From an uncultured Dehalococcoidia bacterium (GTDB lineage: Bacteria; Chloroflexota; Dehalococcoidia; UBA2247; RBG-13-53-26), in the NCBI GenBank assembly GCA_964475375.1, contig CAYYWI010000003.1:1719-65718 (forward strand): a stretch of 64,000 nt of DNA, given 5' to 3'. Made by a program: the position numbers and the translations under genes. Under the pieces are notes generated by a model. The model worked only from the letters and a program-made list of their open reading frames with translations. It was not told the DNA's origin and ran no database searches. Below, piece after piece: positions 5,355 to 32,126 of this stretch (positions within the stretch are counted from its first letter, which is position 1; every line of letters begins with the position of its first letter).

Positions 5355-5397
5355 GGGGACACCCCAAAACCCCGGCAGGAGATCCCTCCTGCACCTC
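5355..5397. repeat. Family B intergenic element, copy 1 (GGGGACACCCC..CCCCGGCAGG + hairpin + CACCTC)
   Basis: Seen in sequence: GGGGACACCCCAAAACCCCGGC, then hairpin GCAGGAG-ATCC-CTCCTGC, then ACCTC. See the other family B copies. Confidence 0.6.
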
Positions 5398-5543
5398 TCC
5401 AGATAACGCCAACGTAACCCTCCTGGTGCTGATCTGATAGCGTAGCACAAAGCCACAAATATCTGAACCAGAAGGAGACAGGACAGGATCAGAAACGTTG
5501 GTGAAAATGCGAGGGAGGGGAGATGCGCAACTTCTGAGGAGGG

Positions 5544-6500
5544 CTAAGCTTTCTTCCTGAGAACCGTGGCCTTTACCGCTTTCTCGATGTCGGCTGCAGT
5601 CAGACCATAGCGCTTCAGCAGTTCAGCAGGCGTGCCCGACTGGGCGTACATGTCCTTGATGGCCACGAATGAGACAGGCACGGGGTGATGTTGAGCCACC
5701 ACCTGAGCCACCCTCGCCCCCAGCCCGCCGTGCTCCAGGTGCTCCTCCGCGGTCACGATAGCGCCGGTCTCGGTGGCTGCCTTCACAACAGCGTCGGCAT
5801 CCAAAGGCTTGACGGTGGCCATGTTCAGCACCCGGCAATCGATCCCCTGTTTCGCCAGGTTCTCCGCCGCCTCCAGGGCCGGTGCCACCATGATCCCGTT
5901 GGCGATGATAGTGAGATCAGATCCATCTCTCAAGCGCGCCGCTTTGCCCAGAACAAACTGGTACCCGTCCTTGGACACCCGCGGCACCTTCGGCCGTCCC
6001 AGGCGCACGTAGAAAGGACCGGGAGTGGTTGCCACCACTCTGATCGCCTGAGTCGTCTCTTCGGCATCGGCTGGTACAATCACATTGAAACCGGGCAGCG
6101 AGCAGGCCAATGCCACATCCTCGATAGCGTGATGCGAGAGGCCATCCTCACCAACGCTGATGCCGCCATGCGTGGCCACCACCTTCACATCCAGCCGGGG
6201 CTGGGAGACGGACATGCGCAGTTGGTCGAAGCATCGTCCGGTAGCAAAAACGGCAAAGGTGCTGGCAAAGGCGATCTTGCCAGAAGCCGCCAGCCCGGCC
6301 GCAATCCCGATCATGTTCTGCTCCGCAATGCCGCAGTCGAAAAAGCGATTGGGGAACTCCTTGGCAAAGTGAAGGGTCATGGTTGACTTGGAAAGGTCCG
6401 CATCCAGGACAACGATGTTCGGGTTCTCTCGCCCCAAGACGACGAGCGCCTTGCCGTAGGCGTCTCTGGTAGCAGCCGGCGCTTCCTTCACGTTACCCAC
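5544..6500 (-). CDS. transketolase, C-terminal subunit
   Basis: Pyrimidine-binding and C-terminal domains (GIAEQNMIGIAAGLA..., GEDGLSHHAIEDVA). GTG start at 6500 overlaps the upstream stop by 1 nt. Confidence 0.9.
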   Translation of the reverse strand: MGNVKEAPAATRDAYGKALVVLGRENPNIVVLDADLSKSTMTLHFAKEFPNRFFDCGIAEQNMIGIAAGLAASGKIAFASTFAVFATGRCFDQLRMSVSQPRLDVKVVATHGGISVGEDGLSHHAIEDVALACSLPGFNVIVPADAEETTQAIRVVATTPGPFYVRLGRPKVPRVSKDGYQFVLGKAARLRDGSDLTIIANGIMVAPALEAAENLAKQGIDCRVLNMATVKPLDADAVVKAATETGAIVTAEEHLEHGGLGARVAQVVAQHHPVPVSFVAIKDMYAQSGTPAELLKRYGLTAADIEKAVKATVLRKKA

Positions 6501-7474
6501 TACGCCAACTCCCGCAGCGCCCGCTCAGTTTCCTCACGGTTTGGAGCCTTGCCGTGGAAATCCACGTTGTTCTCCATGAAGCTGACGCCCTTGCCTTTGA
6601 CGGTGTGCGCAATGATCATGGTCGGCTGTCCCTTGACACGCTCCGCCTGCTCATAAGCCGCGAGCAATTGAGACAGGTCATGGCCATCGACTTCGATGAT
6701 GTTCCAGCCGAACGCGCGCCACTTGTCGGGCAGCGGTTCGAGATTCATAACGTCCCTGTTCCAACCGTCGATCTGTAATCCGTTGTGATCGACGATGCCA
6801 ACGAGGTTGTCCAGCTTGAAGTGAGCAGCGGCCATAGCCGCTTCCCAGACCTGACCCTCATCGCACTCACCATCGCCCATCAAGACATATACCCGGTAGC
6901 TTTTGGCATCCAGACGCCCAGCCAAGGCAACGCCGACGCCAAAGGACAAACCCTGGCCCAGAGATCCGCACGTGGCTTCCACACCGGGAGTGCAGGTCCT
7001 GTCGGGATGCCCCTGCAAGCGGCTGTCGATCTTCCTCAGAGTGCACAGCTCATCACCAGCGAGGTAGCCCGACTCGGCCAGGACAGCATAGAGAAGCGGT
7101 GCAGCATGGCCCTTGCTCAGGATGAAGCGATCGCGATCCGGCCAATCAGGCTCCGAAGGCCGGTGCCGGAGGACACGGAAGTAGATAGCTGTGACAATCT
7201 CAACAGATGAAAGGGAGCCGCCGGGATGGCCGCTGCCTGCGATGGAAGTCATTTCAATGATGTGGCGGCGCAAAGTCTTGGCCATCGCCTGAAGGTCTTG
7301 GATGCTGACCAGACTCTTACCTGTGGAGGATAACTTCGCAGATGGGCCAACACTGGTTGGCCGAGGGCTGCTGCCGGGGATACTTTGTTCAAACATGGCT
7401 ATGAAAGAAGTCGGACTGTCATTATACATTAGCGCTGAGGCAGAAGGCAATTGCGCCAGCGCTGCCTCCTTCAC
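6500..7474 (-). CDS. transketolase, N-terminal (TPP-binding) subunit
   Basis: MTSIAGSGHPGGSLSSVEI...GDGECDEGQVWEAAMAA TPP-binding motifs. The 5' start is uncertain: GTG at 7474, or internal Met codons at 7396 or 7285. Confidence 0.85.
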   Translation of the reverse strand: MKEAALAQLPSASALMYNDSPTSFIAMFEQSIPGSSPRPTSVGPSAKLSSTGKSLVSIQDLQAMAKTLRRHIIEMTSIAGSGHPGGSLSSVEIVTAIYFRVLRHRPSEPDWPDRDRFILSKGHAAPLLYAVLAESGYLAGDELCTLRKIDSRLQGHPDRTCTPGVEATCGSLGQGLSFGVGVALAGRLDAKSYRVYVLMGDGECDEGQVWEAAMAAAHFKLDNLVGIVDHNGLQIDGWNRDVMNLEPLPDKWRAFGWNIIEVDGHDLSQLLAAYEQAERVKGQPTMIIAHTVKGKGVSFMENNVDFHGKAPNREETERALRELA

Positions 7475-7559
7475 TTTTGGTTTGGTTTTGGATTATACTG
7501 TGATGGTTCGCGTTGGCCCTATATATAGATTGTAGAACCTGTGAAAGGGGGATGGTTTA

Positions 7560-9632
7560 ATGCAGAGCTACAGCACTGACCACATACGCAACGTGGTCCT
7601 GCTCTCACACTGTGGAGCAGGTAAGACCTCGCTGTCGGAGGCGATGCTGTTCACGTCTGGGGCCATCCCGCGCCTGGGCCGGGTTGACGACGGCAGCAGC
7701 ACGTCTGACTTTGATCCGGACGAGATCAAGCGCAAGATCAGTATCAACCTTTCCGTACTCCCTTGCGAGTGGGATGGCAATAAGATCAATATTCTGGATG
7801 CTCCCGGCTATGCCGACTTCGTGTCCGGGGCGGTGGCCGGGGTGGCAGTAGCTGATGCGGCAGTGATCGCCATCTGTGCAGCGTCAGGAATCGAAGTGGG
7901 CACCGAGATGATGTGGAAGCTGGCCGATGGCAGGGCACTCTCCCGCATCATTTTCATCAACAAGATGGACAGAGAGAACGCTGATTTCAGCAAGGTGGTG
8001 GAGCAGATCCAGAAGAGGTTTGGCCGACATTGCGTGCCCCTGGCCATGCCCATAGGGGCTCATTCCACCTTTGAGGGTGTTGTGGACCTTCTGGCAATGA
8101 AGGCTTACAAGAAGGAGAAGAAGGAGGAAGCCATCCCAGCTTCGGTTGAGGCTCAGGCCAAGGCTTTAAGGGAGAAGATGGTTGAGGCAGTGGCGGAGAT
8201 GGATGATGAGCTCACCCTCAAGTACCTGGATGGACAGGAGATAGCAGCCGAGGAACTGAGCCGAGTTCTGATTCAGGGAGTGAAGGCAGGGAAGATAGTC
8301 CCCATCCTGACCGGCTCGGCGCTGCAGAACCTGGGCACCAACGGTCTGCTTGATGCGATCTGCAAGCTCCTGCCATCGCCGCAGGAAGTCCCGCCAGCGG
8401 AAGCGACCAACGCCAGCAACCAGGCCGAGTCCCTGAAGGCCGATGAGAACGCCTCTCTGGCTGCTCTGGTGTTCATGACCAGCGCTGATCCGTATGTAGG
8501 CAAAGTGACCCATTTCCGGGTCTACTCCGGCACCATCAGCAGCAACTCCCAGGTGTGGAACAGCACCAAGGCGCAGCTTGAGCGTATCGGTCAGCTCTTC
8601 ATGTTCAAAGGCAAGACCCAGGAGGCTGTTCCCAAGGTTATCGCCGGAGACATCGGCGCGGTGGGCAAGCTGGCGGCAACCGTTACCGGAGACACTCTGT
8701 CAGTCAAAGAGCATGCGGTCAAGTTGCCGTCTATCGTTTTCCCGGAGCCGATATACAGCGTGGCTCTGCATCCCAAGACCAAGACAGACGTGGACAAGCT
8801 GGGCACTGTGCTGCCCAGGCTGGCGGAAGAAGACCCCACCCTCCGCATTCGAAAGGACACGGATACCGCTGAAACCGTGCTGATGGGGATGGGAGACACG
8901 CATGTCGACGTGGTGGCCGAGAGGATGCAGCGCAAGTTCGGCGTGGGGGTCAAGCTGGAAATCCCCAAGGTTCCCTACAGAGAGACCATCACGGCGAAGG
9001 TCGAGGCTGAGCACAAGCACAAGAAGCAGACCGGTGGTCACGGACAATACGGGCATGTTCTGATCCGGGTGGAGCCGCTGCCGCGGGGCACCGGTTTCGA
9101 GTTCGCTGACCAGGTCGTGGGTGGCGCAGTGCCCCGGAACTTCATCCCGGCTGTGGAGAAGGGCGTTATGGAAGCGCGGCATGAGGGCGTCCTGGCCCGT
9201 TACCCGATCGTCGATGTCAGGGTCACTCTGTACGATGGCAGCGCCCACCCCGTGGACTCTTCGGAAATGTCCTTCAAGATTGCCTCATCGATGGCGCTGA
9301 AGAAAGCCCTTTCGCAGGGATTCACCGTCCTGCTCGAACCCATAATGAAACTCAAAGTCATGGTGCCGGAAACCTTCACCGGTGACATCATCTCCGACCT
9401 GAATACCAAGCGTGCCAGAGTGATGGGCATGATCCAGGAGGGCGGCCTGCAGGTAATTGATGCGCAGGCACCTCTGGCGGAAGTGCAGAAATACGCTGTG
9501 GATCTGAGGTCGCTGACTCAGGGCAGGGGCACCTACACCATGGATTTCGATCACTACGAAGAGGTGCCGTCCTTCCAGGCCCAGAAGATCATAGACGCGC
9601 GGGCCGAAGAGAAGGAAAAAGAGAAGGCCTAG
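7560..9632 (+). CDS. elongation factor G-like translational GTPase (divergent EF-G paralog)
   Basis: 690 aa with G domain plus EF-G domains II-V (ILDAPGYADF, GDTL motifs). The G1 motif is atypical: SHCGAGKTS. Confidence 0.85.
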   Translation: MQSYSTDHIRNVVLLSHCGAGKTSLSEAMLFTSGAIPRLGRVDDGSSTSDFDPDEIKRKISINLSVLPCEWDGNKINILDAPGYADFVSGAVAGVAVADAAVIAICAASGIEVGTEMMWKLADGRALSRIIFINKMDRENADFSKVVEQIQKRFGRHCVPLAMPIGAHSTFEGVVDLLAMKAYKKEKKEEAIPASVEAQAKALREKMVEAVAEMDDELTLKYLDGQEIAAEELSRVLIQGVKAGKIVPILTGSALQNLGTNGLLDAICKLLPSPQEVPPAEATNASNQAESLKADENASLAALVFMTSADPYVGKVTHFRVYSGTISSNSQVWNSTKAQLERIGQLFMFKGKTQEAVPKVIAGDIGAVGKLAATVTGDTLSVKEHAVKLPSIVFPEPIYSVALHPKTKTDVDKLGTVLPRLAEEDPTLRIRKDTDTAETVLMGMGDTHVDVVAERMQRKFGVGVKLEIPKVPYRETITAKVEAEHKHKKQTGGHGQYGHVLIRVEPLPRGTGFEFADQVVGGAVPRNFIPAVEKGVMEARHEGVLARYPIVDVRVTLYDGSAHPVDSSEMSFKIASSMALKKALSQGFTVLLEPIMKLKVMVPETFTGDIISDLNTKRARVMGMIQEGGLQVIDAQAPLAEVQKYAVDLRSLTQGRGTYTMDFDHYEEVPSFQAQKIIDARAEEKEKEKA

Positions 9633-9924
9633 TTATTCGGAGGGCGATCGGCATCAAACTGACCGCCCTATTTGTTCAATCGGCACTGCGAGACCCTACC
9701 AGTAGCGCGTTCCGGCCACGAAGGCTTCGGTACCCTGTTTCTTCAGCTTCCGCAGGTTCTTGACGTTGGCCGTGGATCGGCTTCAGAAAGTCCAGCTTCC
9801 GGCAGGTCTTGAACTCATCGCACTCCCAGCAGCCCTTGATGCCCCGCTTGTTGCAGCAGACTTAGGCAGGACTCGTCTTCAACCGCGTACCTTCCTGTCC
9901 CGAGGACAAAACCCGGTCTCCGTA

Positions 9925-9947
9925 GGGGCGAAGCTGGTGCTTCGCCC
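9925..9947. repeat. Family D variant: GGGGCGAAGC-tggt-GCTTCGCCC hairpin
   Basis: Seen in sequence: a 9-bp stem built from the GGGGCGAAGC half-site shared with the other family D copies. Confidence 0.45.
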
Positions 9948-10055
9948 TCGGGAGGCACCATCCTTCGGCCCGGTGGTAACATGGCGTTGTCTCCAGGCTC
10001 TGCCGTTCACCCCCTTCATCCCCCCACTGGGGATGGAGATAAGAGGGGAATCTGA

Positions 10056-10093
10056 GGGACACCCCCAGACCCCCGGCAGCGTTCCGCTGCACC
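10056..10093. repeat. Family B intergenic element, copy 2
   Basis: GGGACACCCCCAGACCCCCGGC followed by hairpin GCAGCG-TTC-CGCTGC then ACCG. The hairpin sequence differs from the other copies but stays complementary. Confidence 0.6.
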
Positions 10094-10226
10094 GTTATGC
10101 CACTCCATCTTCCTCGATGGCAGGGGACAGAGAGGTGAGGCGCAGCCCCCAAGCCCCGTCCGTTGGGAAAAGAGAAGGGGCCATGCTTTCGCGTGGCCCC
10201 TTGAAGCAACGAGTTTGATTCTCGAG

Positions 10227-11222: not shown

Positions 11223-11232
11223 TCGTTCCTCC

Positions 11233-12835: not shown

Positions 12836-15800
12836 CTAGATGGATTTACCACGACTGCGGTTCTGCAAGAGATCCCAGATATCGGAGGGAATGCCGATGC
12901 GTCGGTGGATAATCATATCACGAAGGAAAGTGGCATCACCCGGAGAGAGATTTATCGTCCAGACTTTCAATTTCTCCTCATTGGAGATCAAGCTCATGCG
13001 GATGCAGTTCAACTTATAGCGGTCATGACGATAGGTGGTGAGCAAGTCGCCAATCTCGTCTGCTGACATCGCCAGCAACCGGGATTGTGGATACTCGGGG
13101 TCCGGTGTCGGAGGTTTGTAGGAATCCCCGTGAATCGACTTCATCAGCGCTTGCCACGATTCTTCGGGCAGATGCAGCCTCGATCTCCGTATAGCCGGCA
13201 CCAGCCCGATGATGTTGTAGGGGGCAATGTTATGCAGACGAGCCTCGAAGGTCGGCAAGTCCAGCCGACCCCAGGTTCTCTCCAGCAAGGTACGGGCATC
13301 TTCTTTGTGATTCATTCGGCAAAGGCACATGAGCAGCACTCCCTGATCGTTCGGTGACGACTCAAACAGCGTGGCGACGAATAGCTCTCGATGCAGTAGA
13401 TCGGCGATCGCATTTTGGAGTTCCTTGTTCAGGCCCGCTCCGCCCAGATAGTCCAGGAAGGTGACCAGGCGGTTTGGCGGCATGCGCGCCAGCCGATCAT
13501 TGAATTCCACCATTGCCAGGAGGCGGCGAACGATGCCTGCACCAGCGAGTTCCCCGTTGCTCGCCTTGATCTGCCTGATGTCCAGATACTTCAGAAAGTT
13601 GACCACCACTTCACCCGCCGGGGAACGTGCCAGTGTTTGTGCGAACTGGTCGAGCGCCAGCAGGTGGTGAACGATGCCCGTGCTGACCAACTCTCCGTTG
13701 TCTGCCTTGATCTGCCTGATGTCCAGATACTTCAGGAAGTTGACCACGGAGAGCAGCGGCGTACGCGCCAGCGCTTGTGTGAACTGGTCGAGCGCCAGCA
13801 GGTGGCGAACGATGCCCGTGCTGATGAACTCTCCATTGTCTGCTTTGATCTGCCTGATATCCAAGTACCTCAGGAAGTTGACCACCTCCCCCGCCGGGGA
13901 ACGTGCCAGTGCTTGTACGAACTGGTCAAGTGCCAGCAGGCGGTGAACGATGCCCGTGCTGACAAGCTCTCCGTTGCCCGCCTTGATCTGCCTGCTGTCC
14001 AGATACTTCAGGAAGTTGGCCACCGCTGCCGCCGGTGAATGCGCCAGCGTCTGCGCGAACTGGTCGAGCGCCAGCAGGTGGTGAACAATGCCTGTGCTGA
14101 CAAGCTCTCCATTGTCCGCCTTGATTTGCTTGCCGTCCAGATACCTCAGGAAGTCCGCCACGTAGTTCGGCGGTACACGTACCAGATTGTTGAGAAGCAC
14201 AATGTAACCCGTGCCTGATTGCAGGGCGCACAGGCGCTGCCAGCTCCAAGGTATATCCCCTCTCTTGAGACTTCTTGCCGTATGGGGCGGCGCATTGCAC
14301 AGCGCGCGCTCCACAAGGCCATCTTCGTTCATCACTGCCTGAGACCATTGATCATGGCTCATCAGCTCGTTGTAGTCACCGGAAGCCAGACGGTAGTTCA
14401 CCAATCCCACCATGAATGGATAGCGTCGGCAGACTGCGAGGACGTGGCTGAGCCACAGACTGCTGAACTGCCGGTCATCAAAGCCACTCTGAGCTTGCAG
14501 TATGAGCTCTCCCAGGCTGGGATGGAACAACCGACAGTAGAGTCTCGGGCTGTTGCCTCGTATAGGAGCCCGCAGCACCGTGCCATTGGCGGTGAACTCG
14601 GGGAGGAGGGTTTCGATGCTCTGGCCCCAGATGGCGTTGTCCTCCGCATCCAGATCCAGGCTGCCAAGAACGCAGAGCTCGGAGAAGCATTTCCTTTGCC
14701 CCGGTGCTCTGTCCGCCGGTATCAGATAGCGCTGCTGCACCATGGACGTGATTGAACTGCGGCTCAGTGTCCCCGGGTTCCTGGGGTCAAAGGCGGTAGC
14801 GAATACCGCCAAGTCCCCACCACACTGTTTGACCCAACGGCGAGCCGAACCCGAGGCCACTTCACGATCTATCCCAAGGCGTTGGGTAAGCCTTCGGGCT
14901 ACGCATCGGAAGGCCTCCTCGGTCGCCCTCAGTTCCGTTATCTTGAGGGACTCCTCGTCGTAGAGACTGTTTCGATCAGTCACTCTGTGTTCGGAAAGAC
15001 GTCCAAGCAGCAACACATGTACCTGCATCCCTTGAGCACGGAGCGCTTGAGTGCGCTTCAGCAGGCGATGTGCCAGTTGCTGGTCGATATGCACATTGTC
15101 AAGGATCAGTAGCAGCGGCTGCTGCGTGGTGCGGACGAACCACTCGATGTCGCTGCGGGCATTTTCGAACGATTGAGCGCCGTGGAGATCGAGTTCCTTC
15201 AGATCCAGGAAGAGGCTCCGGCCATTCATCTCTGCCGCCCATTCAAATGCTACGGCCAAACCAAAGACGGTTTTGCCGCAGCCGCGTGCGCCTCTGACCC
15301 ACACATCGTTTGAAGCTTTGAGCAGAGAGAGCACCTCCTCGCGCTCGGTCTTCGGCAAGTAGACCTTGCGACCGGCAAACTCCTCGTACGAGGGGCTATG
15401 GGCGTTTCTGCCACCCATGCTAGCCCGAACCCAATCGGACAGGTCGGTTAAGATATGCAGTCCCGGCAGCCGTTCAGCGTGTTGGCACTCTCGCAGGAAC
15501 ATGCTCTGATCTTTCTGCTGCCACTCGGTGCCCGTCCATTCACAGACCATGCCGGTGTGGGGTCTGACGGGCAGATTCGGTCCTGCGCTTTTGATCACAT
15601 CCTCCGCTGGAGGCAGTGAGAAACACAGCAGCCATTCCCCTCGAGCAGAAAGCCGGAGGCGTTGAGCATAGTGTCCGAGGGATGGTGCATCTCTCACCAT
15701 TTCCCCGGTGCTTGGATCTTTGAGAACGGAAGCCAAAGTCCTCTCCCAAAGGCCCAATGCCGGGAGTTCGCTCTTGAACGGGCAGGTCACCAGCCAGCTG

Positions 15801-16708
15801 TGCCCGGCCTGCACCGCTTTGCTCTCCACATTGATATGAGCCACATTCGGGCTGACCACCCTCATCGTCTGTGTCTCAACCTGGGCATGGTGATACAGAT
15901 CCACGACAGCGCGCTGGAAGTTGTAATCGAGCGGTTCGTTATTGCATTGAGGGAGCAGTAGATAGTGAATCCCCCCATGCCCGGCTCGGGCATCCTGCAG
16001 CAGGTCGCTGATGAAGAGGCTCTTTCCTCCAGGTTGGGCGATCAGGTCGTAGCAAATGCTGGTCATGACATTGTGATCACCGATCTGGAGCACGTAGGTG
16101 AATCGGCCTTGCAGAAACCTCCCGCGACCCGGCTGTCGCTCCAATGGGTATGGATACCGCTTGGGTTGGAAGAAATACTGACCCGGAGCATCCGGCATGG
16201 CTGGATTGCAGGCCAGCAGGACAGCGACATTGACGAACGCGGTCGATTCCGATGCCGGGGGGACGAGGGCGAAAAGGCGCTGGCAGCCATCCGGTCCGGT
16301 GAGAGACCGATCGCCCGAAGCCAGGTTCTTGTTGTTGGACAGATCATCTCTCAACAGTTTCCTGAAGCGCGAAAAGCGGAGATACTCAACAGGGAGGCAG
16401 ATCAGACATGCTCCGGTTTCTGCAGGACGCGCGCGGACAAGCCCCCAGGCAAGCTCCATCAATTCCGGAAGCGAATCGGCCGGCACTGATATCTCCGGCA
16501 GCACGACTATGTTGGCCCAATGATCACGGATGGCGGTCGTCAATGCCTTGGAAAGCTTCATTGTGTGGGCGGATACGTCAGACAGACAGGATGGAGCACC
16601 GTCAGGTCCTCGCGCCGTCAGTGACACCGCAACCTGGACAGCCGCAACCCTGTGTTCTTCAGAGGGGAAGCTGCAGTTTTCGATTCTAAAGGCCGCAAGG
16701 CTGCTCAT
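12836..16708 (-). CDS. giant multidomain protein: N-terminal C-N hydrolase (nitrilase-superfamily) domain + central STAND/NLR-like P-loop NTPase + C-terminal 43-aa tandem repeats
   Basis: The N-terminal domain carries the nitrilase E-K-C triad pattern (VAAVQVAV; IVVLPEI; QPKRYPYPLE; TSICYDLIAQPG). A Walker A (VWVRGARGCGKTV) and Walker B (LLLILDNVH) follow. Then come 5 near-identical repeats of the form VNFLKYLDIRQIKADNGELVSTGIVHHLLALDQFAQTLARSPAGEV. Confidence 0.8.
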   Translation of the reverse strand: MSSLAAFRIENCSFPSEEHRVAAVQVAVSLTARGPDGAPSCLSDVSAHTMKLSKALTTAIRDHWANIVVLPEISVPADSLPELMELAWGLVRARPAETGACLICLPVEYLRFSRFRKLLRDDLSNNKNLASGDRSLTGPDGCQRLFALVPPASESTAFVNVAVLLACNPAMPDAPGQYFFQPKRYPYPLERQPGRGRFLQGRFTYVLQIGDHNVMTSICYDLIAQPGGKSLFISDLLQDARAGHGGIHYLLLPQCNNEPLDYNFQRAVVDLYHHAQVETQTMRVVSPNVAHINVESKAVQAGHSWLVTCPFKSELPALGLWERTLASVLKDPSTGEMVRDAPSLGHYAQRLRLSARGEWLLCFSLPPAEDVIKSAGPNLPVRPHTGMVCEWTGTEWQQKDQSMFLRECQHAERLPGLHILTDLSDWVRASMGGRNAHSPSYEEFAGRKVYLPKTEREEVLSLLKASNDVWVRGARGCGKTVFGLAVAFEWAAEMNGRSLFLDLKELDLHGAQSFENARSDIEWFVRTTQQPLLLILDNVHIDQQLAHRLLKRTQALRAQGMQVHVLLLGRLSEHRVTDRNSLYDEESLKITELRATEEAFRCVARRLTQRLGIDREVASGSARRWVKQCGGDLAVFATAFDPRNPGTLSRSSITSMVQQRYLIPADRAPGQRKCFSELCVLGSLDLDAEDNAIWGQSIETLLPEFTANGTVLRAPIRGNSPRLYCRLFHPSLGELILQAQSGFDDRQFSSLWLSHVLAVCRRYPFMVGLVNYRLASGDYNELMSHDQWSQAVMNEDGLVERALCNAPPHTARSLKRGDIPWSWQRLCALQSGTGYIVLLNNLVRVPPNYVADFLRYLDGKQIKADNGELVSTGIVHHLLALDQFAQTLAHSPAAAVANFLKYLDSRQIKAGNGELVSTGIVHRLLALDQFVQALARSPAGEVVNFLRYLDIRQIKADNGEFISTGIVRHLLALDQFTQALARTPLLSVVNFLKYLDIRQIKADNGELVSTGIVHHLLALDQFAQTLARSPAGEVVVNFLKYLDIRQIKASNGELAGAGIVRRLLAMVEFNDRLARMPPNRLVTFLDYLGGAGLNKELQNAIADLLHRELFVATLFESSPNDQGVLLMCLCRMNHKEDARTLLERTWGRLDLPTFEARLHNIAPYNIIGLVPAIRRSRLHLPEESWQALMKSIHGDSYKPPTPDPEYPQSRLLAMSADEIGDLLTTYRHDRYKLNCIRMSLISNEEKLKVWTINLSPGDATFLRDMIIHRRIGIPSDIWDLLQNRSRGKSI
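13542..14190. repeat. Five tandem, near-identical 129-bp repeats inside the giant CDS (encode the 43-aa repeats)
   Basis: Period 129 nt; units start about 13542, 13671, 13801, 13930 and 14059. The core GATGCCCGTGCTGAC..CTTGATCTGCCTGATGTCCAGATACTTCAGGAAGTTGACCAC is conserved across units. Confidence 0.85.
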
Positions 16709-18364: not shown

Positions 18365-18372
18365 AGGAACGC

Positions 18373-21787: not shown

Positions 21788-21819
21788 GCCGGGGCGTGCA
21801 GAGGGGCGAAGCCCCTCTG
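21788..21819 (+). repeat. Family D module: CGGGGCGTGCAGAGGGGCGAAGCCCCTCTG (9-bp stem GCGAAGC mini-hairpin)
   Basis: Seen in sequence in the serA 5' leader. Near-identical to 51778..51803; the inverted copy is at 23658..23677. Confidence 0.6.
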
Positions 21820-21841
21820 AATACACACAATCCCCCAAGAG

Positions 21842-21864
21842 TGCGGGATTCGAGGGGGTTGAAA
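21842..21864 (+). repeat. Family A motif (..GAGGGGGTTGAAAG) in the serA leader
   Basis: Seen in sequence. Shares the GGGGGTTGAA core with 51841, 60184, 32033 (rc) and 34337 (rc). Confidence 0.5.
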
Positions 21865-23522: not shown

Positions 23523-23571
23523 TTTTTCTTCAACCCCTGTCCCCCGATCTCGGGGGGAAGAAAAGGATTTT

Positions 23572-23615
23572 GGGGGCACCCCAAGCCCCGGCAGGAGGAA
23601 GCCTCCTGCACCTCC
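23572..23615. repeat. Family B intergenic element, copy 3
   Basis: GGGGGCACCCCAAGCCCCGGC followed by hairpin GCAGGAGG-AAG-CCTCCTGC then ACCTCC. Confidence 0.6.
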
Positions 23616-23657
23616 TTTAGGATTTGGAATTTCAGATTTGCAGCGAACAGCCCGGCA

Positions 23658-23677
23658 AGGGGCTTCGCCCCTCTGCG
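23658..23677 (-). repeat. Family D module, inverted copy (AGGGGC-TTC-GCCCCTCTG)
   Basis: Its reverse complement equals the 3' part of the module at 21799..21819. Confidence 0.5.
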
Positions 23678-23823
23678 CGCCCCGAGGTCGAGTTTCGTGG
23701 CTGTCGGGTCGCCGACCCGACGCCGGGTCAGGTCGGGAGACCTGACACCCACAGAGCAGGTTCCGAACCTGCCTGGAAGCCATTTGTAGTGGGGAAGCGA
23801 AACCCGCCACTATTTCAGAAGGA

Positions 23824-27425: not shown

Positions 27426-27453
27426 TTGACAATTACTGTAGAGACTCTAACAT
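27426..27453 (+). promoter_or_regulatory. Sigma70-like promoter candidate (TTGACA-16-TAACAT) upstream of the CoA-binding gene
   Basis: Hexamers seen in sequence about 100 nt before the 27557 start. An alternative TTGCTA-18-TACAAT sits nearer the start. Confidence 0.3.
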
Positions 27454-27556
27454 GTGCAGGCTGGAGTATTCAACTTCGGGATGAGCAGGTGATAATGTGT
27501 ATGCTGGCCTTTCTTGCTATCGACGGCAACGCGCGAGTACAATCTAGCCTAGCGCG

Positions 27557-28996
27557 ATGTCACTCGATGCCATTTTCAACCCTCGCTCAATTGCGGTCGT
27601 CGGTGCCACAGGGACCCCGGTAGCCGCTCCGAATGCTCCTGCCACCTCCTTCAATGCCCATACCCAGATCTTCATGTATACACTGATTGACTGGGGCTAT
27701 CCAGGACACATCTACCCGGTCAACACCAAAGGCGATGAAATCCGCGGGTTGAAGGTCTACAGGAGCTTGAGAGATATCCCCGGGCCGGTGGATTATGTCA
27801 TCTGCATCGTCCCGGCGGAGGCTACTCCGGGATTGGTCCAGGACTGCGTGGCCAAGGGCGTGAAAGGCCTTCACCTGTACACGGCTGGTTTTGCTGAAAC
27901 CGGTCTGGCTGACAAGAGCACACTTCAGGCCGATCTGGTCAGGGTGGCCCGCAGCGGTGGAGTCCGCATGATCGGCCCCAACTGCATGGGCATATACTGC
28001 CCGAAGATGGGAATGACCTATGGTCCCAACTTCCCGAGGGAGCCCGGCAATGTGGCCTTCATCTCGCAGAGCGGCAGCTACACCCTGTTGCTGGTCCGGG
28101 CGGCGGCGGCACGCGGTTTGCGTTTCAGCAAGGTGGTAAGCTACGGCAATGCCAGCGACCTGAACGAGATTGATCTCCTGGACTACCTGGCGGATGATTC
28201 CGACACGGAGTTCATCGGGGCCTACATCGAGGGGACGAGGAATGGGCCGACCGTGGCGAGGGTACTGGCCAAAGCCGCTTCGAAGAAGCCGACGATAATC
28301 ATAAAGAGGGGCAGCACGGAGGCAGGGAAGAGGGGAGCCAACACTCACACCGGAGCCTTGGCCGGAGACGACTCAGTCTGGGACAGCATGCTCAGGCAGT
28401 GCGGCGCTATCCGGGTGGAGGACTTCGAGGAGATGGCCGATCTCCTGACAACGTTCGCTTTCTTCCGCCTGCCGCGGAGCCGCAGGGCGGTGCTGTTCGG
28501 TGTGGGCGGCGGGGCCGGGGTGCGGGCGTCGGACGAGTGTGAGGCCGGTGGTTTGACTTTGCCTCCGATACCGGAGGAGTTGAGGGCAGAGCTGGCGCGA
28601 TCGCTGACAACAGCGGGAACTATGCTCAGGAACCCCGTGGACCCGGGCCACTATGCACGCGACTGGACGGATATGATGCAGCGGCTGGATAAGTGGGAAG
28701 ATGCGGACATGCTGCTGTGGCAGATCGCCCCGGACATCGAGGCTCTACAAGCGGACGACTTCCTGCAGTACATATACATGATGAGGCTCAACACGCTCAA
28801 GACATTCAAGAGCTTGAGCAAACCCAAGGCCGTGATTGTGCATGCTGTGGAAAGTGACGTCGGCCTTCAGGCGTTGATCGAAACTCGGAAGGCATGCGCA
28901 CAGAACAAGGTGGCCTTCTACCCATCGATATACCGCGCGGCCCGCGCCATAGGGCGGTATATGGACTACTGCGAACGGCACGGTCGCAACACATAA
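27557..28996 (+). CDS. CoA-binding protein, acetate--CoA ligase (ADP-forming)-like
   Basis: N-terminal CoA-binding Rossmann motif (SIAVVGATG...YPVN...VDYVICIVP) and a succinyl-CoA-synthetase-alpha-like motif (GPNCMGIY...FISQSGS). Confidence 0.8.
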   Translation: MSLDAIFNPRSIAVVGATGTPVAAPNAPATSFNAHTQIFMYTLIDWGYPGHIYPVNTKGDEIRGLKVYRSLRDIPGPVDYVICIVPAEATPGLVQDCVAKGVKGLHLYTAGFAETGLADKSTLQADLVRVARSGGVRMIGPNCMGIYCPKMGMTYGPNFPREPGNVAFISQSGSYTLLLVRAAAARGLRFSKVVSYGNASDLNEIDLLDYLADDSDTEFIGAYIEGTRNGPTVARVLAKAASKKPTIIIKRGSTEAGKRGANTHTGALAGDDSVWDSMLRQCGAIRVEDFEEMADLLTTFAFFRLPRSRRAVLFGVGGGAGVRASDECEAGGLTLPPIPEELRAELARSLTTAGTMLRNPVDPGHYARDWTDMMQRLDKWEDADMLLWQIAPDIEALQADDFLQYIYMMRLNTLKTFKSLSKPKAVIVHAVESDVGLQALIETRKACAQNKVAFYPSIYRAARAIGRYMDYCERHGRNT

Positions 28997-29259
28997 GCGC
29001 TGGCATCCCCCAGCCGGAGTTCAAATCCAATCATGACTGTACTTTGAATTTCTTGCCGCCTTCCTGGCAGATGCGCTGGATGATTATCTTTCCCCAGTGT
29101 GCATTCTGGGCGATATCCGACACCATGGTGGCCCACGCTCCAACGAAGTAGAAATTCGATAGTTGAACCTCAACCTGGTTTTTATGCCGTGGGAGTGCCT
29201 CTACAGAATCTCGATTATCTGTTCGGCGACCCTCTGTTTTTCCTGATTGAGGCGAGGTG

Positions 29260-29289
29260 TTGACAAAAATTAATAATTAAGACTATGAT
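29260..29289 (+). promoter_or_regulatory. Strong sigma70-like promoter (TTGACA-18-TATGAT) in an AT-rich island upstream of the DUF2089 operon
   Basis: Consensus -35 and near-consensus -10 seen in sequence. A local AT-rich stretch (29265..29340) stands out in the GC-rich genome. Confidence 0.55.
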
Positions 29290-29346
29290 AGTTCAGACAA
29301 ATTAATACTGATATTAAGCTTTATGATATAAAACAGGTGATCGAGG

Positions 29347-29709
29347 ATGGCTAGAGACTGGCAAGAACTGACAAAGATGACTCAAGGCAAGCCGGTAACA
29401 GTGGAACGCGTGCGTGTGGCGGATACAGATATTACTATCGAGGGGAGTTTTTCGCTCCCGCCGCTGGCTAGTTTATCCGCCGAGGACCAGGTCTTCGTCA
29501 TGGCCTTCGTCCGCTGTCATGGCACCATCAAGGAGATGGAAGAGATGTTTGGCATAAGCTACCCCACAGTGAAGAATCGGCTTAACCGGATCGCCCGGCA
29601 GCTTGAGTTTGTTGAGACCGTGAAGGTCTCACCAGCGGAAGAAGCGATCGGCGGCCTTGAACGCGGTGAAATCTCTGTCGACGAGGCGATGAGGAGGCTA
29701 TCGGAATGA
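29347..29709 (+). CDS. DUF2089-family protein (zinc-ribbon + HTH-like)
   Basis: Size and architecture typical of DUF2089 (MAFVRCHGTIKEMEEMFGISYPTVKNRLNRI helix-turn-helix segment). Confidence 0.6.
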   Translation: MARDWQELTKMTQGKPVTVERVRVADTDITIEGSFSLPPLASLSAEDQVFVMAFVRCHGTIKEMEEMFGISYPTVKNRLNRIARQLEFVETVKVSPAEEAIGGLERGEISVDEAMRRLSE

Positions 29710-29984
29710 AGCGGCCACCCACGTTGATGCACATGAGAATCGAGGGGGAGAGAGGTGGATTCGGCTTATGGCTGCCGCTTTTCCTGATGCTGCCGCTGGC
29801 ACTGGTGGTGTTCACCATCCTGTCCCCGCTGATATTGGTGGCAACCATCGTTCTGTGGCCGACTGGCTGGGGGAAGAGAGCATTACTCACTCTGAGAGCC
29901 GCAATCGAGGTTTTCTGGTCGATACGTGGTCTCAGCGTCGATGTTCACAGTAGTCGTCAAAGCGTGTCGATTTCAGTCGTGTAG
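29706..29984 (+). CDS. small membrane protein (DUF2089 operon member)
   Basis: 4-nt overlap with the upstream gene; two TM helices. Confidence 0.5.
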   Translation: MKRPPTLMHMRIEGERGGFGLWLPLFLMLPLALVVFTILSPLILVATIVLWPTGWGKRALLTLRAAIEVFWSIRGLSVDVHSSRQSVSISVV

Positions 29985-30006
29985 CCGAGTGAAGGAGGAC
30001 AAAGTC

Positions 30007-30450
30007 ATGTCAGACAACAAGAGGAAAATCCTGGAGATGCTGGCTCAGAATAAGATCAGTGCCGACGATGCCTATCGCCTGCTCGGTGCGATAGAGGGGG
30101 GGGAGAGCAGAAGCGACAGCACTGGTAGGGCCGAGACTGCCGTCAAAGCCAAGCCGAAATACTTTCGCGTTACGGTAGTGCCGAACCCCGAAGAGGAGCG
30201 GTCCGGCAATTACGACCGGGTGAACATACGCGTGCCCATGTCGCTGATACGGGCCGGCATTAAGCTGACCTCTCTGATACCGTCCGAAGCCCGGGACAAG
30301 GTAGATTCGGCACTGCATGAAAAAGGCATTGACTTCGATATACGCCACATGAAACCCGAAGAAATCGAGGATCTCATCGGGGCCCTGAGCGATCTTGAAG
30401 TGGATGTCACAAGCAAGACAGGAGAGAAGGTTAGGGTGTTCGTTGAATGA
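30007..30450 (+). CDS. hypothetical protein with SHOCT-like N-terminal motif
   Basis: Perfect SD GAAGGAGGA before ATG 30007. ILEMLAQNKISADDAYRLLGAIE resembles the SHOCT motif. Confidence 0.55.
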   Translation: MSDNKRKILEMLAQNKISADDAYRLLGAIEGGESRSDSTGRAETAVKAKPKYFRVTVVPNPEEERSGNYDRVNIRVPMSLIRAGIKLTSLIPSEARDKVDSALHEKGIDFDIRHMKPEEIEDLIGALSDLEVDVTSKTGEKVRVFVE

Positions 30451-30618
30451 AAGCGCTTTCGATGGCGAAAACTGGCATGCGCCCGAGTGCGTGATTCGCA
30501 GTAATGAGGAGGTGCTTTGATATCTGAGATCAAGAAACCGTACCCGGCGAGCTGTTGGTGGACTATCCCGACCGCGAGCTGAACCGGCTGACTAAAAAAG
30601 GCTGAGTAGGAGGAGAAC

Positions 30619-30756
30619 GTGAAGGAAGCATCTATAGGAGGGACTCTCTGGTTTGCCGGGTGGCTGTTCACTATAGGCTTTGCCCATATGGTGTGGTGGA
30701 AGATCATTCTGGGAATAGTAGTTTGGCCGTTCTTCCTGGGTAATCATCTCGCCTAA
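30619..30756 (+). CDS. candidate 45-aa small membrane protein
   Basis: GTG start 8 nt after TAGGAGGAGAAC. Encodes VKEASIGGTLWFAGWLFTIGFAHMVWWKIILGIVVWPFFLGNHLA; found by hand-reading the + strand, too short for the ORF track. Confidence 0.25.
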   Translation: MKEASIGGTLWFAGWLFTIGFAHMVWWKIILGIVVWPFFLGNHLA

Positions 30757-31004
30757 GCCAAACCAGGACTTCTACTAAGATCGCTTCTCCACGGGGTCCG
30801 GGACAAGCGCCGAAATCCTGGTTTCCAGAGGCATTGATGGATCTTCAACTGGCGGAATAGCCAAACTAAGCCGAATGGACCATCTTCCAGACCAAATGCC
30901 GCAAAGCCTGGCGCGATGGCTCCGAGCGGACAGGCCTCCAGACACCACCCGCAGCCGGCACAACGGGCCTTGTCCAGCCTGATCGGCTTCATCACCGAGA
31001 CCAC
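30753..31004 (-). pseudogene. remnant / duplicated 3' fragment of the 4Fe-4S ferredoxin gene (32131..32556)
   Basis: About 70 nt near-identical to 32255..32330. Encodes IRLDKARCAGCGWCLEACP(L/F)GAIA and then diverges; no N-terminal part is present. Confidence 0.6.
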
Positions 31005-31167
31005 GGGCCCGCAGCAAGACGATCTGCGACGTAGTGGAGTTGCCTGCCGGCCACTGCACCCTCGCCGTCGGCTATCCGGCCGAGCAGTTCTTCCGGCTGG
31101 TGCCGTGAAATCCGCCGAATGTCCAGTCTGCCGAACGTGAGAGGACTGTGCGAGATACTCTATGAGT

Positions 31168-31572
31168 CTAATCCAGTTGCGGCCAGCCTTTGTTGTCGTT
31201 ACCGATGTGCAGTACCCCGTACAAACTGGCGATGCTAACCAGCACGGTTATAGTTGGCCATACCATGTTCAAGTCGAGCAGGATATCAACAATGAGCCCA
31301 GTCGCGTTTACCGCACAATATCCCCAGAACCCCCATTTCTTCCACTTGAACAGAGCAATGACGCAAATAATCTGCAGAATCAGCAATGCTATCAGAACCG
31401 GGGCTGTCCACTGCGGCGCATCCCTGGGCGTCAAAGATACAGCATCCCCGGCCAGATAGAGCGTTATGGCCACCATGCTGCTTGCGATGATTAGAACCAG
31501 CCATCCCGTGAGGCATCCGTGCCTTTTCTTTCTCCTGTCAGTCGCGGGAATTTCCGTAGAGCGTTGCATCAC
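31168..31572 (-). CDS. hypothetical membrane protein
   Basis: Four predicted TM helices; no domain recognised. Confidence 0.5.
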   Translation of the reverse strand: MMQRSTEIPATDRRKKRHGCLTGWLVLIIASSMVAITLYLAGDAVSLTPRDAPQWTAPVLIALLILQIICVIALFKWKKWGFWGYCAVNATGLIVDILLDLNMVWPTITVLVSIASLYGVLHIGNDNKGWPQLD

Positions 31573-31839
31573 ACAACTCCTTAGCAGATTGTCTCAGAGT
31601 CCCGCAGGGCTGTGCCCACCAATGCGCATCCTCATTCTCCGACGAAACCTTCAGGAAATGCAACCGCATCTCCTTCTTGAACATGGACCATCTCACGGAG
31701 TAGGAGCGAAACATGTTTCTTCCCTACGCGGGGCGTGGCCTATACGCAATGCAGGCGCTCCGGCAACACAACCCCGGCATCAACCCGGAAAGGACGGCTC
31801 TGCGCCGGGCGATTGCCCCAAGACGCGTAGCGTGGTATG

Positions 31840-31867
31840 TAGGCGCAACGCATGCGTTGCGCCTACG
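31840..31867. repeat. Perfect 28-bp palindrome GTAGGCGCAACGCATGCGTTGCGCCTAC
   Basis: Seen in sequence: the reverse complement equals the forward sequence, centred on GCATGC. Confidence 0.9.
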
Positions 31868-31871
31868 TCAT

Positions 31872-31897
31872 AGAGGCATGGCATGCCATGCCTCTAC
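31872..31897. repeat. Perfect 26-bp palindrome TAGAGGCATGGCATGCCATGCCTCTA
   Basis: Seen in sequence: lies 4 nt after the 28-bp palindrome and is also centred on GCATGC. Confidence 0.9.
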
Positions 31898-32032
31898 ACA
31901 AGGCGTATCGACCGGCGGTGGTGTTTGTCAGGGTCGTAGCCCATGTATGTTCAAGCAATCCATGTTCGCTGTGGGATCACCTGTGGTGGGCACAGCCCAC
32001 CCTGCGGGACTTGGCCTTCCTCTCATCAGAGT

Positions 32033-32063
32033 CTTTTCAACCCCCTGGCCCCCATTCTTGGGG
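32033..32063 (-). repeat. Family A motif, extended copy (rc: CCCCAAGAATGGGGGCCAGGGGGTTGAAAAG)
   Basis: 30-nt near-identity with the copy at 34337..34366. Confidence 0.6.
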
Positions 32064-32081
32064 AATAGGGAGAAGAGAACT

Positions 32082-32126
32082 GGGGGACACCCCCAGACCC
32101 CCGGCGGGACAAGTCCCTGCACCCTC
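32082..32126. repeat. Family B intergenic element, copy 4
   Basis: GGGGGACACCCCCAGACCCCCGGC followed by an imperfect hairpin GCGGGAC-AA-GTCCCTGC then ACCCTC. Lies 5 nt after the ferredoxin stop. Confidence 0.55.

Follow-up and report, generated by a model that had tools for sequence, protein, structure and literature searches.

What repeated sequence lies between the genes of this locus, and which of its features are under selection? The locus is a 64,000-nucleotide stretch of a contig from an uncultured Dehalococcoidia bacterium (referred to here as the window). An earlier note, made from the letters alone, had described four copies of a 42-nt intergenic element with one hairpin (family B) and had proposed a structured RNA or a REP-like element. 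We conclude that the best reading is a REP/BoxC-like structured interspersed repeat, to which we assign no biological role. On the sequence evidence below, we consider the chances about even that family B forms the core of a larger repeat of ~100 nt, which is modular, interspersed, and strand asymmetric and has the layout of an intrastrand triplex (a putative triplex).

Copies in the window and modular architecture

All four copies were found on the plus strand where they had been placed. The pattern CACCCC-N2-6-CCCCGGC-N6-20-CTGCACC has exactly four matches in the window (0.00 expected; 100 shuffles), and a covariance model scored these strong copies at 48.8 to 62.1 bits (E values, 2e-13 to 4e-10). 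At least four degenerate copies are also present in the window. The single-hairpin unit of 42 nt gave way to a modular unit of ~100 nt. Each module places three blocks on one strand: R, made of purines; Y, the Watson-Crick complement of R, with which it forms the hairpin; and Z, which mirrors Y. The core, written on the C-rich strand, is (G4-5 ACA C4-5 N1-3 C4-5) GGC (A-R-loop-Y-TGCA-Z), in which the P2 hairpin is xyGGGG(G)-ACA-(C)CCCCy'x' and P3 is the hairpin originally quoted; P1 is an optional upstream module (C5 N3 C5 loop G5). Read on the G-rich strand, the modules have the class I order (third, purine, and pyrimidine strand) two times and then the class II order (pyrimidine, purine, and third strand). 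The linker letters ACA, CCGGCA, and TGCA are strongly conserved, which suggests that sequence-specific recognition by some protein is also involved. The covarying P2, the third C-run that tracks P2 length, P1, and the further copies were absent from the earlier note. The features in the window are as follows.

5342..5399, plus strand: copy 1, 50.6 bits (covariance model); upstream C4 at 5342-5345
5354-5366, plus strand: P2 of copy 1, T-GGGG-ACA-CCCC-A; third C-run at 5370-5373
5375-5392, plus strand: P3 of copy 1, GCAGGAG-ATCC-CTCCTGC; mirror segment Z at 5394-5399 (CCTCTC)
10011..10097, plus strand: copy 2, 48.8 bits; P1 at 10011-10033 (CCCC-TTCAT-CCCCCC-ACT-GGGGA)
10052-10069, plus strand: P2 of copy 2; third C-run at 10070-10074; P3 at 10076-10090 (GCAGCG-TTC-CGCTGC); Z at 10092-10097
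21790..21862, minus strand (G-rich strand on plus): degenerate flipped copy, CGGGGCG-TGCA-GAGGGGC-GAA-GCCCCTC, then CCCCC-AAGAGT-..-GGGGGTTGA; P2 lost
23524..23616, plus strand: copy 3, 62.1 bits; P1 as a long hairpin at 23524-23564
23534-23558, plus strand: inner part of P1 of copy 3, CCCC-TGT-CCCCC-GATCTC-GGGGGG
23570-23584, plus strand: P2 of copy 3; third C-run at 23586-23589
23591-23609, plus strand: P3 of copy 3, GCAGGAGG-AAG-CCTCCTGC; Z at 23611-23616 (CCTCCT)
23651..23685, plus strand: P3-only extra unit ~40 nt past copy 3, CCCGGCAAGGGGCTTCGCCCCTCTGC then GCGCCCC; 11.7 bits, E value of 0.29
32036..32127, plus strand: copy 4, 57.4 bits; P1 at 32036-32063 (TTCAA-CCCCC-TGG-CCCCC-ATTCTT-GGGG)
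32080-32096, plus strand: P2 of copy 4, CTGGGGG-ACA-CCCCCAG; third C-run at 32098-32102
32104-32120, plus strand: P3 of copy 4; Z at 32122-32127
34337..34415, plus strand: copy 5, degenerate, 6.7 bits; P1 at 34341-34365
34379-34394, plus strand: decayed P2 of copy 5; P3 at 34398-34412 (GCAGCA-TCC-TGCTGC)
51680..51721, minus strand (G-rich strand on plus): degenerate flipped copy, 14.1 bits, E value of 0.078; GGGA-TGCA-GCAAC..
51687-51700: hairpin of the preceding copy, GCAGCA-ACC-TGCTGC, then C-GGGG-TCCA-GGG

The hairpin arms quoted previously hold for copies 1 to 3, but those of copy 4 (GCGGGAC/GTCCCTGC) require a bulge, and a better fit to the family is GCGGG/CCTGC, which includes a G.T pair. 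The P3-only unit is a member of a subfamily with an A.C pair. Pfam confirmed the identities of the minus-strand genes reported beside the four strong copies (transketolase C subunit, EtfA, LysE, and 4Fe-4S ferredoxin); 4 to 6 nt separate the start of copy 4 from the stop of the ferredoxin gene on the opposite strand. P1 of copy 5 abuts the ATG of an AOR gene (34336, minus strand; GGGGGTTGA-ATG), whose protein has its named relatives in Dehalococcoidia/Chloroflexota MAGs. The copy at 21790 to 21862 is flanked by two plus-strand genes (aminotransferase and serA), and that at 51680 to 51721 begins 16 nt past the stop of a plus-strand gene (50114..51664). Thus, the statement that all copies share the plus orientation is true of the four strong copies, whereas these two degenerate copies beside plus-strand genes are flipped.

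A search of Rfam 15 gave 0 matches for the window at the gathering score and none on the element at an E value of ≤1 in eight loci. A literature search with the core sequence returned irrelevant matches only. A CRISPR array was ruled out, the 20 to 35 nt between the cores of tandem arrays being itself repeated.

Watson-Crick pairing

Among 62 distinct copies, 88.7% of the cells were paired, compared with 47 to 58% when the partner was slid. Double changes were observed at eight pairs, 95 cells were changed on both sides, and none of 500 shuffles reached the observed pairing or covariation values. Compensatory changes are present in both P2 and P3, and the P2 outer pairs use TA/CG/AT and TA/CG/GC/AT. 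The hairpins are therefore selected, as had been argued for P3 from four copies. Regarding the non-Watson-Crick pairs of P3 on the C-rich strand, A.C (23) outnumbered G.T (11); these counts lean toward the G-rich strand as the folding strand, without settling the matter. Folding energies did not separate the two strands.

Mirror relation of the third segment

The strongest signal is in the third segment: Z mirrors the 3' arm (Y) of its own hairpin and is neither its complement nor a direct repeat of it. With copies collected by a pattern that leaves Z unconstrained, the mirror model matched at 262 of 309 positions (84.8%), while a direct-repeat model matched at 54.4% in the same comparison. 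Shuffling Z among copies gave a mean of 178.8 matches (58%; standard deviation, 6.7; maximum, 204; 2,000 permutations), and shifting the Z/Y register lowered the match to 37 to 49%. The identity between Y level i and Z level j was 0.79 to 0.97 on the diagonal and 0.40 to 0.85 off it. There were 41 distinct Y strings and 21 distinct perfect mirrors, with at most one mismatch in 45 of 63 combinations; for example, locus L237 pairs Y CCGTCCCTC with Z CTCCCTGCC (9/9 mirror match), and the mirror is 7/7 in L194, L207, and L236. A mismatch in R does not break the agreement of Z with Y ([A,C,C] in 15 cases). At A-T levels, Z is T in 63 cases, A in 7, G in 2, and C in 1; A, the most frequent departure from T, matches the T.A-T triad permitted in the purine motif, while four T-A.G triads agree with the pyrimidine-motif rule instead.

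Similar behavior was found in P2, whose two C-runs are equal in length in 113 of 129 copies (permutation mean, 57; maximum, 81). The run lengths were (4,4,4) in 55 copies, (5,5,5) in 41, and (6,6,6) in 4. A strict scan of the window for the triplex layout detected 6 sites (~0.55 expected), 5 of which are inside the element. The mirror relation is selected and position-specific, and Watson-Crick pairing cannot explain it. The three-block mirror layout is that of an intrastrand triplex, as in the BoxC/PIT/TMECO repeats of Escherichia coli.

It was also observed that the 3' ACC(T)C tail covaries with the hairpin, a relation absent from the earlier note. An alternative Watson-Crick pairing of the third block (i.e., a switch) was ruled out because the mirror fits Z far better than a direct repeat does. 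Also ruled out was a tRNA-like element or a mimic of the 16S 3' end (anti-Shine-Dalgarno; CACCTCCTTT), because the tail changes along with the stem (CCCC, CTCCCC, CCTCT, etc.).

These results bear on a simpler reading, namely, a plain REP-like hairpin repeat acting in RNA, with P3, P2, and P1 as intercistronic stem-loops on a G-rich transcript. The hairpins would shield the message upstream of them against 3' exonucleases or influence read-through, and the mirror would be a by-product (spare G-runs or Shine-Dalgarno-like runs) with no triple helix. The covariation supports hairpins, the G-rich strand is preferentially sense, the A.C pairs of the C-rich strand become G.U in the G-rich RNA (twice as frequent as the reverse), and the tandem arrays are BIME-like; moreover, purine-motif triplexes do not form in RNA (PMC4666352). 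We nevertheless regard this reading as rather unlikely. Ordinary RNA secondary structure, as originally proposed, leaves the strongest signal unaccounted for, in that Z is a position-specific mirror and not a direct repeat, which alternative Watson-Crick pairing would favor; the third C-run tracking P2 length is likewise left unexplained.

The putative triplex stems are short (4 to 7 triads, rarely 9). The outer Watson-Crick pairs (P2 xy/y'x' and P3 GCA/TGC) covary or are invariant, yet they occupy the positions at which a triplex would need to turn from the third strand into the purine strand. Hence, the full hairpin and the register needed for the triplex may not coexist in a single structure but represent two alternative states.

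Distribution and turnover

Every class of Chloroflexota that was sampled (Dehalococcoidia, Anaerolineae, Chloroflexia, and Ktedonobacteria) contained the element, as did some Clostridia. Its copies are dispersed, in tandem arrays of up to 8 to 9 units, or in close inverted pairs with a shared central hairpin. "REP-like" thus holds in the broad sense of a short, intergenic, multicopy sequence that at times forms tandem or inverted arrays. Dispersed copies within one locus were mostly concordant in orientation (~18 versus 3 discordant). Locus L360 holds an intact orthologue of copy 5 at the same site with the same P3. One copy has retained its specific P3 sequence at an orthologous site across ~72% protein identity; presence or absence also differs at orthologous sites. 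Some copies persist at orthologous sites, and others have been gained or lost.

Such turnover could indicate a nonautonomous mobile element (MITE/REP type) that moves via single-stranded DNA with an enzyme supplied in trans (e.g., a Y1 HUH transposase), for which the conserved letters and the fold would be recognition features. The many dispersed copies, tandem arrays, inverted pairs with a common central hairpin, differences at orthologous sites, and spread over two phyla are in keeping with this view. So is the co-orientation of dispersed copies, given that IS200/IS605 and REP systems act on the lagging-strand template and show similar orientation behavior (PMC6006769). We consider this origin improbable. 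No larger repeat, insertion sequence, or terminal inverted repeat, which the earlier note had named as a competing explanation, surrounds the copies; as a MITE, the element was rejected because similarity between copies stops at ~95 to 115 nt and its two ends do not form an inverted repeat. The consensus has no GTAG/CGTC tag, and no transposase gene was found between oppositely oriented copies (L047, L077, and L105) or near the sampled loci. Retention of a specific P3 at an orthologous site and the tracking of local gene direction in the window also count against mobility, as does the finding that only 2 of 120 pattern matches on viral contigs were true copies, by which a phage origin was ruled out.

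Genomic context and orientation

Gene context was taken from GC3-filtered open reading frame (ORF) calls, two earlier ORF-based analyses having been too noisy; these calls are crude. The copies are intergenic and biased, with the G-rich strand being the sense (nontemplate) strand of the neighboring genes. At tandem-gene sites, it was sense at 21 and antisense at 7 (by the crude ORF calls). In the window, it was sense at all five informative sites, including the two flipped degenerate copies, and syntenic loci with called genes agreed. GC skew of the window was uninformative for replication direction.

The earlier note had remarked that transcription from the minus strand would yield 3'-end stem-loops. 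The remark agrees with this orientation bias, but a consistent 3'-end or terminator role was not seen. GC-rich hairpins near gene ends, and a T-run past the element in some clades (Dehalococcoidales, ..CCTGCACCTCTTTTTC; copy 4 of the window), would fit an intrinsic (Rho-independent) or bidirectional terminator. In place of a GC-rich stem-loop with an immediate U-tract, however, at least 5 T in 8 nt were found in only 31 of 125 copies in the G-rich orientation and 39 of 125 in the C-rich orientation (25 to 31%), and the T-run, if any, lies 4 to 7 nt from the stem. With gene starts abutted at 35 of 51 sites, 14 sites between divergent genes, and a sequence conservation across phyla that is unexpected for terminators, we judge this role very improbable.

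The same 35 of 51 sites, at which the downstream gene is co-oriented in the G-rich orientation (crude ORF calls), might instead point to a cis-regulatory structured RNA (a leader, riboswitch-like element, or translational operator) for that gene. P1 can abut a start codon, as at the AOR gene, and the blocks resemble Shine-Dalgarno and anti-Shine-Dalgarno sequences (GGAGG/CCTCC). Yet the neighbors in the window share no function (transketolase, TauE, EtfA, LysE, SerA, and AOR), start codons lie anywhere from 0 to >1,000 nt away, copies also occur between convergent genes and in the long arrays, and Rfam offered no match in the window or the eight loci. We give this possibility almost no credence; the element is not a ligand-sensing or gene-specific regulator.

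Proposed mechanism and significance

Once transcription or a replication fork has opened the duplex, the G-rich DNA strand would be free to form hairpins in tandem, with the mirror strand of each one holding it in a purine-motif triplex (G.G-C, A.A-T, and T.A-T), and a transcript of the G-rich strand would carry at least the hairpins. The most likely consequence would be that of a REP/BoxC-type gene-boundary element, in which a structural obstacle or end protection could affect read-through, transcript ends, or local genome stability. A more specific version, which we put forward tentatively and think unlikely, is that the mirror blocks are maintained since a purine-motif triplex forms on the G-rich nontemplate strand as RNA polymerase or the fork passes; the family would then serve gene boundaries across the phylum through its structure, as a roadblock, R-loop anchor, or insulator.

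Knowledge of the intrastrand triplex repeats BoxC/PIT/TMECO goes back 25 years. Their copies are almost identical and so carry no evolutionary evidence for the importance of the triplex itself; probing in vivo gave a negative result. What is new here is the three-way relation, and the family offers dozens of variants that keep both the Watson-Crick and the mirror relations. This variant set makes the question of whether triplexes matter in bacteria testable, and culturable carriers exist (Ktedonobacter racemifer and Dictyobacter). If a triplex does form on the G-rich strand, this would be the first natural covariation documenting selection for a nucleic acid triplex in bacteria. For the annotation of Chloroflexota, the element explains a common intergenic repeat that gives spurious ORFs.

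Comparison with known systems

H-DNA requires a homopurine/homopyrimidine mirror repeat, and Y-TGCA-Z is such a repeat. Its arms (4 to 9 bp), however, are far below typical tracts, and their coupling to an inverted repeat of the same strand argues for single-strand folding rather than supercoiled duplex.

Like the REP/BIME (REPIN) sequences associated with RAYT, the element is a short, multicopy, intergenic imperfect palindrome, single, tandem, or inverted, with stems that vary yet remain complementary. REP families are defined by a GTAG or CGTC tag (PMC3733652), whereas the consensus of 62 copies has neither beside its stems. No association with a RAYT gene was seen at the loci sampled, the family spans classes and two phyla instead of being species-specific, and the third mirror block has no REP counterpart.

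BoxC/PIT/TMECO is an intergenic repeat, occasionally in inverted pairs (Hoyne et al. 2000; Holder et al. 2015, PMC4666352). As single-stranded DNA, TMECO forms a stable triplex in vitro, with loops of N3-6 and N3. In vivo, the triplex escaped detection; neither promoter nor terminator activity was detected, and the function is not known (PMC4666352). The Chloroflexota element resembles these repeats of E. coli and other Proteobacteria in being intergenic, interspersed, multicopy, and not tied to gene function. It also shares three successive one-strand blocks (pyrimidine, purine, and a second purine by mirror symmetry), as seen in P3 (84.8% mirror), P2 (equal runs in 113/129), and P1 (C5-N3-C5-loop-G5), together with a hairpin loop of 3 to 6 nt, a second loop of ~3 nt, and occasional inverted pairs. 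In L363, at a site where relatives carry the element, there is a motif of TMECO layout (CCCTCTCCCC-AG-CCCTCTCCC-ATCGA-GGGAGAGGG), an unrelated neighbor motif.

The TMECO consensus, 5'-CCCTCNCCC N3-6 GGGNGAGGG N3 GGGNGAGGG, has 9-nt stems and shows no similarity to the element, whose blocks are G4-6 runs or of the GGAGG/GAGGGG type (4 to 9 nt) with other linkers. TMECO has nine triads in one class II module; the element has triad runs of 4 to 7 in two class I modules and an optional class II module, with extra Watson-Crick pairs at the hairpin foot and the strongly conserved linkers. The phyla differ, and a gene-orientation bias is present here, with none reported for TMECO. Finally, whereas TMECO copies are nearly identical, the element consists of many sequence variants that keep the mirror rule.

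Copies and anatomy of the element

The four Family B copies on the + strand had been placed correctly in the earlier note. Their shared-letter pattern has exactly four matches in the 64 kb (shuffles predict 0.00), and covariance model scores of the copies are 48.8 to 62.1 bits. Pfam confirmed the neighboring genes (transketolase C subunit, TauE, EF-G-like protein, EtfA, SerA, LysE, 4Fe-4S ferredoxin, and ACT protein). Flank alignment and a comparison of five intergenic regions showed that the similarity spans ~95 to 115 nt and ends there; thus, the copies lie outside any insertion sequence or longer repeat, the circumstance named earlier as an alternative origin. Written on its C-rich strand (+ for these four copies), a full unit reads as follows.

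P1, optional upstream module: TCAA-C5-TGG-C5-loop-G4-6
Spacer between P1 and P2: purine-rich
P2, first core hairpin: xy-G4-5-ACA-C4-5-y'x'
Linker: 1 to 3 bases, the last usually A
Third C-run, then GGC
P3, the hairpin described earlier: A-R-loop-Y-TGC (R, purine block; Y, its Watson-Crick complement)
3' end: A plus a pyrimidine tail, Z

The units in the window are as follows.

5355, +: copy 1
10056, +: copy 2
21790-21862, opposite orientation: decayed copy
23572, +: copy 3
23651-23685: P3-only unit
32082, +: copy 4
34337-34415: fifth copy, degenerate; its P1 abuts the start codon (ATG) of the aldehyde:ferredoxin oxidoreductase (AOR) gene
51680-51721, opposite orientation: decayed copy

At 34337-34345, GGGGGTTGA of P1 immediately precedes the AOR start codon. 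Given that relatives have a conserved CGGGAGTSAC Shine-Dalgarno region between P1 and ATG, the P1 G-run seems to be the likely AOR ribosome-binding site in the window, apparently via a deletion. P1-type units also exist without the core: a 36-nt repeat (AGCTATCAGCTCATGGCTCATAGyCTCAGAGTGGGG; 51811-51846 and 60154-60189, 97% identical) is followed each time by a P1-like G-run/G-run/TTGA unit (GGGGGCAAGGGGGTTGA, GGGGCGGGGGTTGA), 30 to 50 nt before a + gene start. Repeat and unit together may act as a promoter or leader module common to both sites.

Other features of the window were also recorded. Copy 2 lies in a 595-nt gap (9633-10226) that separates the convergent genes for the EF-G-like protein and etfA and contains no Pfam-supported ORF. 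About five tandem 138-nt repeats (13444-14162; 62 to 84% identical) in the minus-strand ORF 12836..16708 (1,290 aa) encode a repeated 46-residue protein domain. Two 73-nt stretches (30913-30985 and 32252-32324) are 95% identical; one belongs to the interior of the ferredoxin gene, and the other, at a distance of 1.3 kb where no long ORF is present, may be a relic of a duplicated ferredoxin gene.

Pairing and mirror symmetry

Among 62 distinct copies, P2 and P3 were paired in 88.7% of cells, versus 47 to 58% when the 3' partner was slid by 1 to 3 columns. Two-sided changes affected eight pairs (95 cells), and none of 500 shuffles reached the observed values; at the P2 foot, the two pairs occur as TA/CG/AT and TA/CG/GC/AT variants. 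Selection for pairing, the central claim of the earlier note, is therefore correct, although it acts on two hairpins rather than one. The description as a structured element with compensatory changes was right, and "REP-like" was a fair first label.

The 3' tail had been described as a shared ACC(T)C. It is not constant: the tail after P3 varies with the stem.

Stem GGAGG/CCTCC: then TGCA-CCTCC
Stem GGGG/CCCC: then TGCA-CCCC
Stem GAGGGG/CCCCTC: then TGCA-CTCCCC
Stem GGAGA/TCTCC: then TGCA-CCTCT

Read outward from TGCA, Z equals Y base for base, forming a mirror repeat. Metagenome copies were used for the statistics; the pattern that retrieved them ends at TGCA, leaving Z unconstrained. The mirror matched at 262 of 309 positions (84.8%), compared with 54.4% for a direct-repeat model on the same copies, 57.9% when Z was shuffled among copies (mean, 178.8; SD, 6.7; maximum, 204 in 2,000 permutations), and 37 to 49% after register shifts. 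The match is position-specific, the identity of Y level i and Z level j being 0.90, 0.92, 0.97, 0.94, and 0.79 on the diagonal and 0.40 to 0.85 off it. Because it spans 41 distinct Y strings and 21 different perfect mirrors (the longest, 9/9, in L237, a locus outside the window), it is not due to one lucky, often-copied founder. P2 follows the same rule in its run lengths: 113 of 129 copies had a third C-run and a paired C-run of equal length (permutation mean, 57; maximum, 81), and the combinations 4/4/4, 5/5/5, and 6/6/6 accounted for 55, 41, and 4 copies, respectively. The three blocks also make up P1, where they are ordered Z-Y-R.

The sole Watson-Crick partner of a mirror copy is its own complement, and mirror repeats are not what a symmetric protein dimer would recognize, its targets being direct or inverted repeats. 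Only one structural reason for a hairpin-plus-mirror layout is known: a third strand that occupies the hairpin's major groove.

Which strand folds

On balance, but not decisively, the evidence favors the G-rich strand. Non-Watson-Crick pairs in P3 comprised 23 A.C (G.T or G.U on the G-rich strand) versus 11 G.T on the C-rich strand. Y and Z still agree where R carries a mismatching A ([A,C,C] in 15 copies); thus, wobble in the pyrimidine partner leaves the mirror relation of the two G-rich blocks intact. Where the level was A-T, Z was T 63 times, A 7 times, G twice, and C once, the A giving a T.A-T triad that is permitted in the purine motif. Against the G-rich strand, Z was G at T-A levels four times, and the G.T-A triad follows the pyrimidine-motif rule. 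Folding energies did not distinguish the two strands. One geometric problem persists: the foot pairs (xy/y'x' and GCA/TGC) sit where the third strand has to turn, so the complete hairpin may alternate with the triplex rather than coexist with it.

Gene context

In GC-rich loci with GC3-filtered ORF calls, and with the C-rich strand taken as reference, the element was antisense to tandem genes at 21 sites, between divergent genes at 14, between convergent genes at 9, and sense to tandem genes at 7. The G-rich strand is thus the sense strand three times in four at tandem-gene sites, and in this orientation a gene start follows the element at 35 of 51 sites. All five informative sites in the window (including the two flipped degenerate copies among + genes) and the syntenic loci whose genes were properly called obey the same rule, so element orientation follows the local direction of transcription. 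A general intrinsic terminator was rejected, because only 25 to 31% of copies have T-rich tails in either orientation. The adjoining genes have unrelated functions. We infer the cellular role of the element: most likely it would serve as a structural obstacle, or as an end structure, at the borders of genes, acting through the opened G-rich strand and/or its transcript.

Turnover and distribution

Four metagenomic relatives share synteny across the IOR-PaaK-ACT-AOR-ferredoxin cluster (AOR, 69 to 75% identical; the named relatives of the AOR protein are Dehalococcoidia/Chloroflexota MAGs). The ACT-AOR gap differs among them.

Window: element present, decayed
L360: element intact, with the same unusual P3 as the window, GCAGCAGGATGCTGC
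L361: element present, with a different P3 type
L362: element absent; DUF559/MTES_1575 gene (very-short-patch-repair-like endonuclease) inserted, 2838-3482
L363 (Chloroflexota-like metagenomic contig), 3439-3500: element absent; TMECO-layout motif CCCTCTCCCC-AG-CCCTCTCCC-ATCGA-GGGAGAGGG

After the ferredoxin gene, the element occurs only in the window and L363. Copies can therefore last long, and gain or loss occurs as well. The surroundings of oppositely oriented copies showed no transposase. A second intergenic hairpin repeat, GGATTCCCGC...GCGGGAATGAC, lies beside Family B copies in related contigs (L360, ~5790-5870; L361, ~2920-2975 and ~5430-5490; L363, ~5840-5865) and was not found within the window.

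Scanning species-representative genomes with the core pattern gave at least 118 loci. About half of the matches listed are chance, inside genes of high-GC Actinobacteria; the remaining listed loci represent clear homologues from Dehalococcoidia, Anaerolineae, Chloroflexia, Ktedonobacteria (Ktedonobacter racemifer and Dictyobacter), and a few Clostridia, including "Candidatus Limiplasma," where TTCCA forms the P2 loop. A looser pattern added ~60 true copies from metagenomes, and only 2 of 120 matches on viral contigs were true. Copies occur singly, in tandem arrays of up to 8 to 9 units, and as close inverted pairs with a common central hairpin. No Rfam family matched the element (window at gathering score; eight loci at E ≤ 1). 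Family B is a widespread Chloroflexota repeat built of hairpin-plus-mirror modules.

Comparison with BoxC/PIT/TMECO

The Escherichia coli BoxC/PIT/TMECO repeat has the same design, CCCTCNCCC-N3-6-GGGNGAGGG-N3-GGGNGAGGG (Holder et al. 2015, PMC4666352, and earlier work reviewed there). It is intergenic, at times in inverted pairs, and is linked with local genome instability; as single-stranded DNA it forms a very stable purine-motif triplex in vitro, DMS did not detect the triplex in vivo, and neither promoter nor terminator activity was found (PMC4666352). Chloroflexi are not mentioned in that article. On its G-rich strand, Family B corresponds to a pair of class I modules (order: third, purine, and pyrimidine strand) with a class II module after them, and its loop sizes resemble those of TMECO; it has no sequence in common with TMECO, and its triad runs are shorter (4 to 7, rarely 9). 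Family B is best filed among interspersed repeats of the intrastrand-triplex type (BoxC/PIT/TMECO), and the comparative evidence that points to a three-block constraint is unusually strong.
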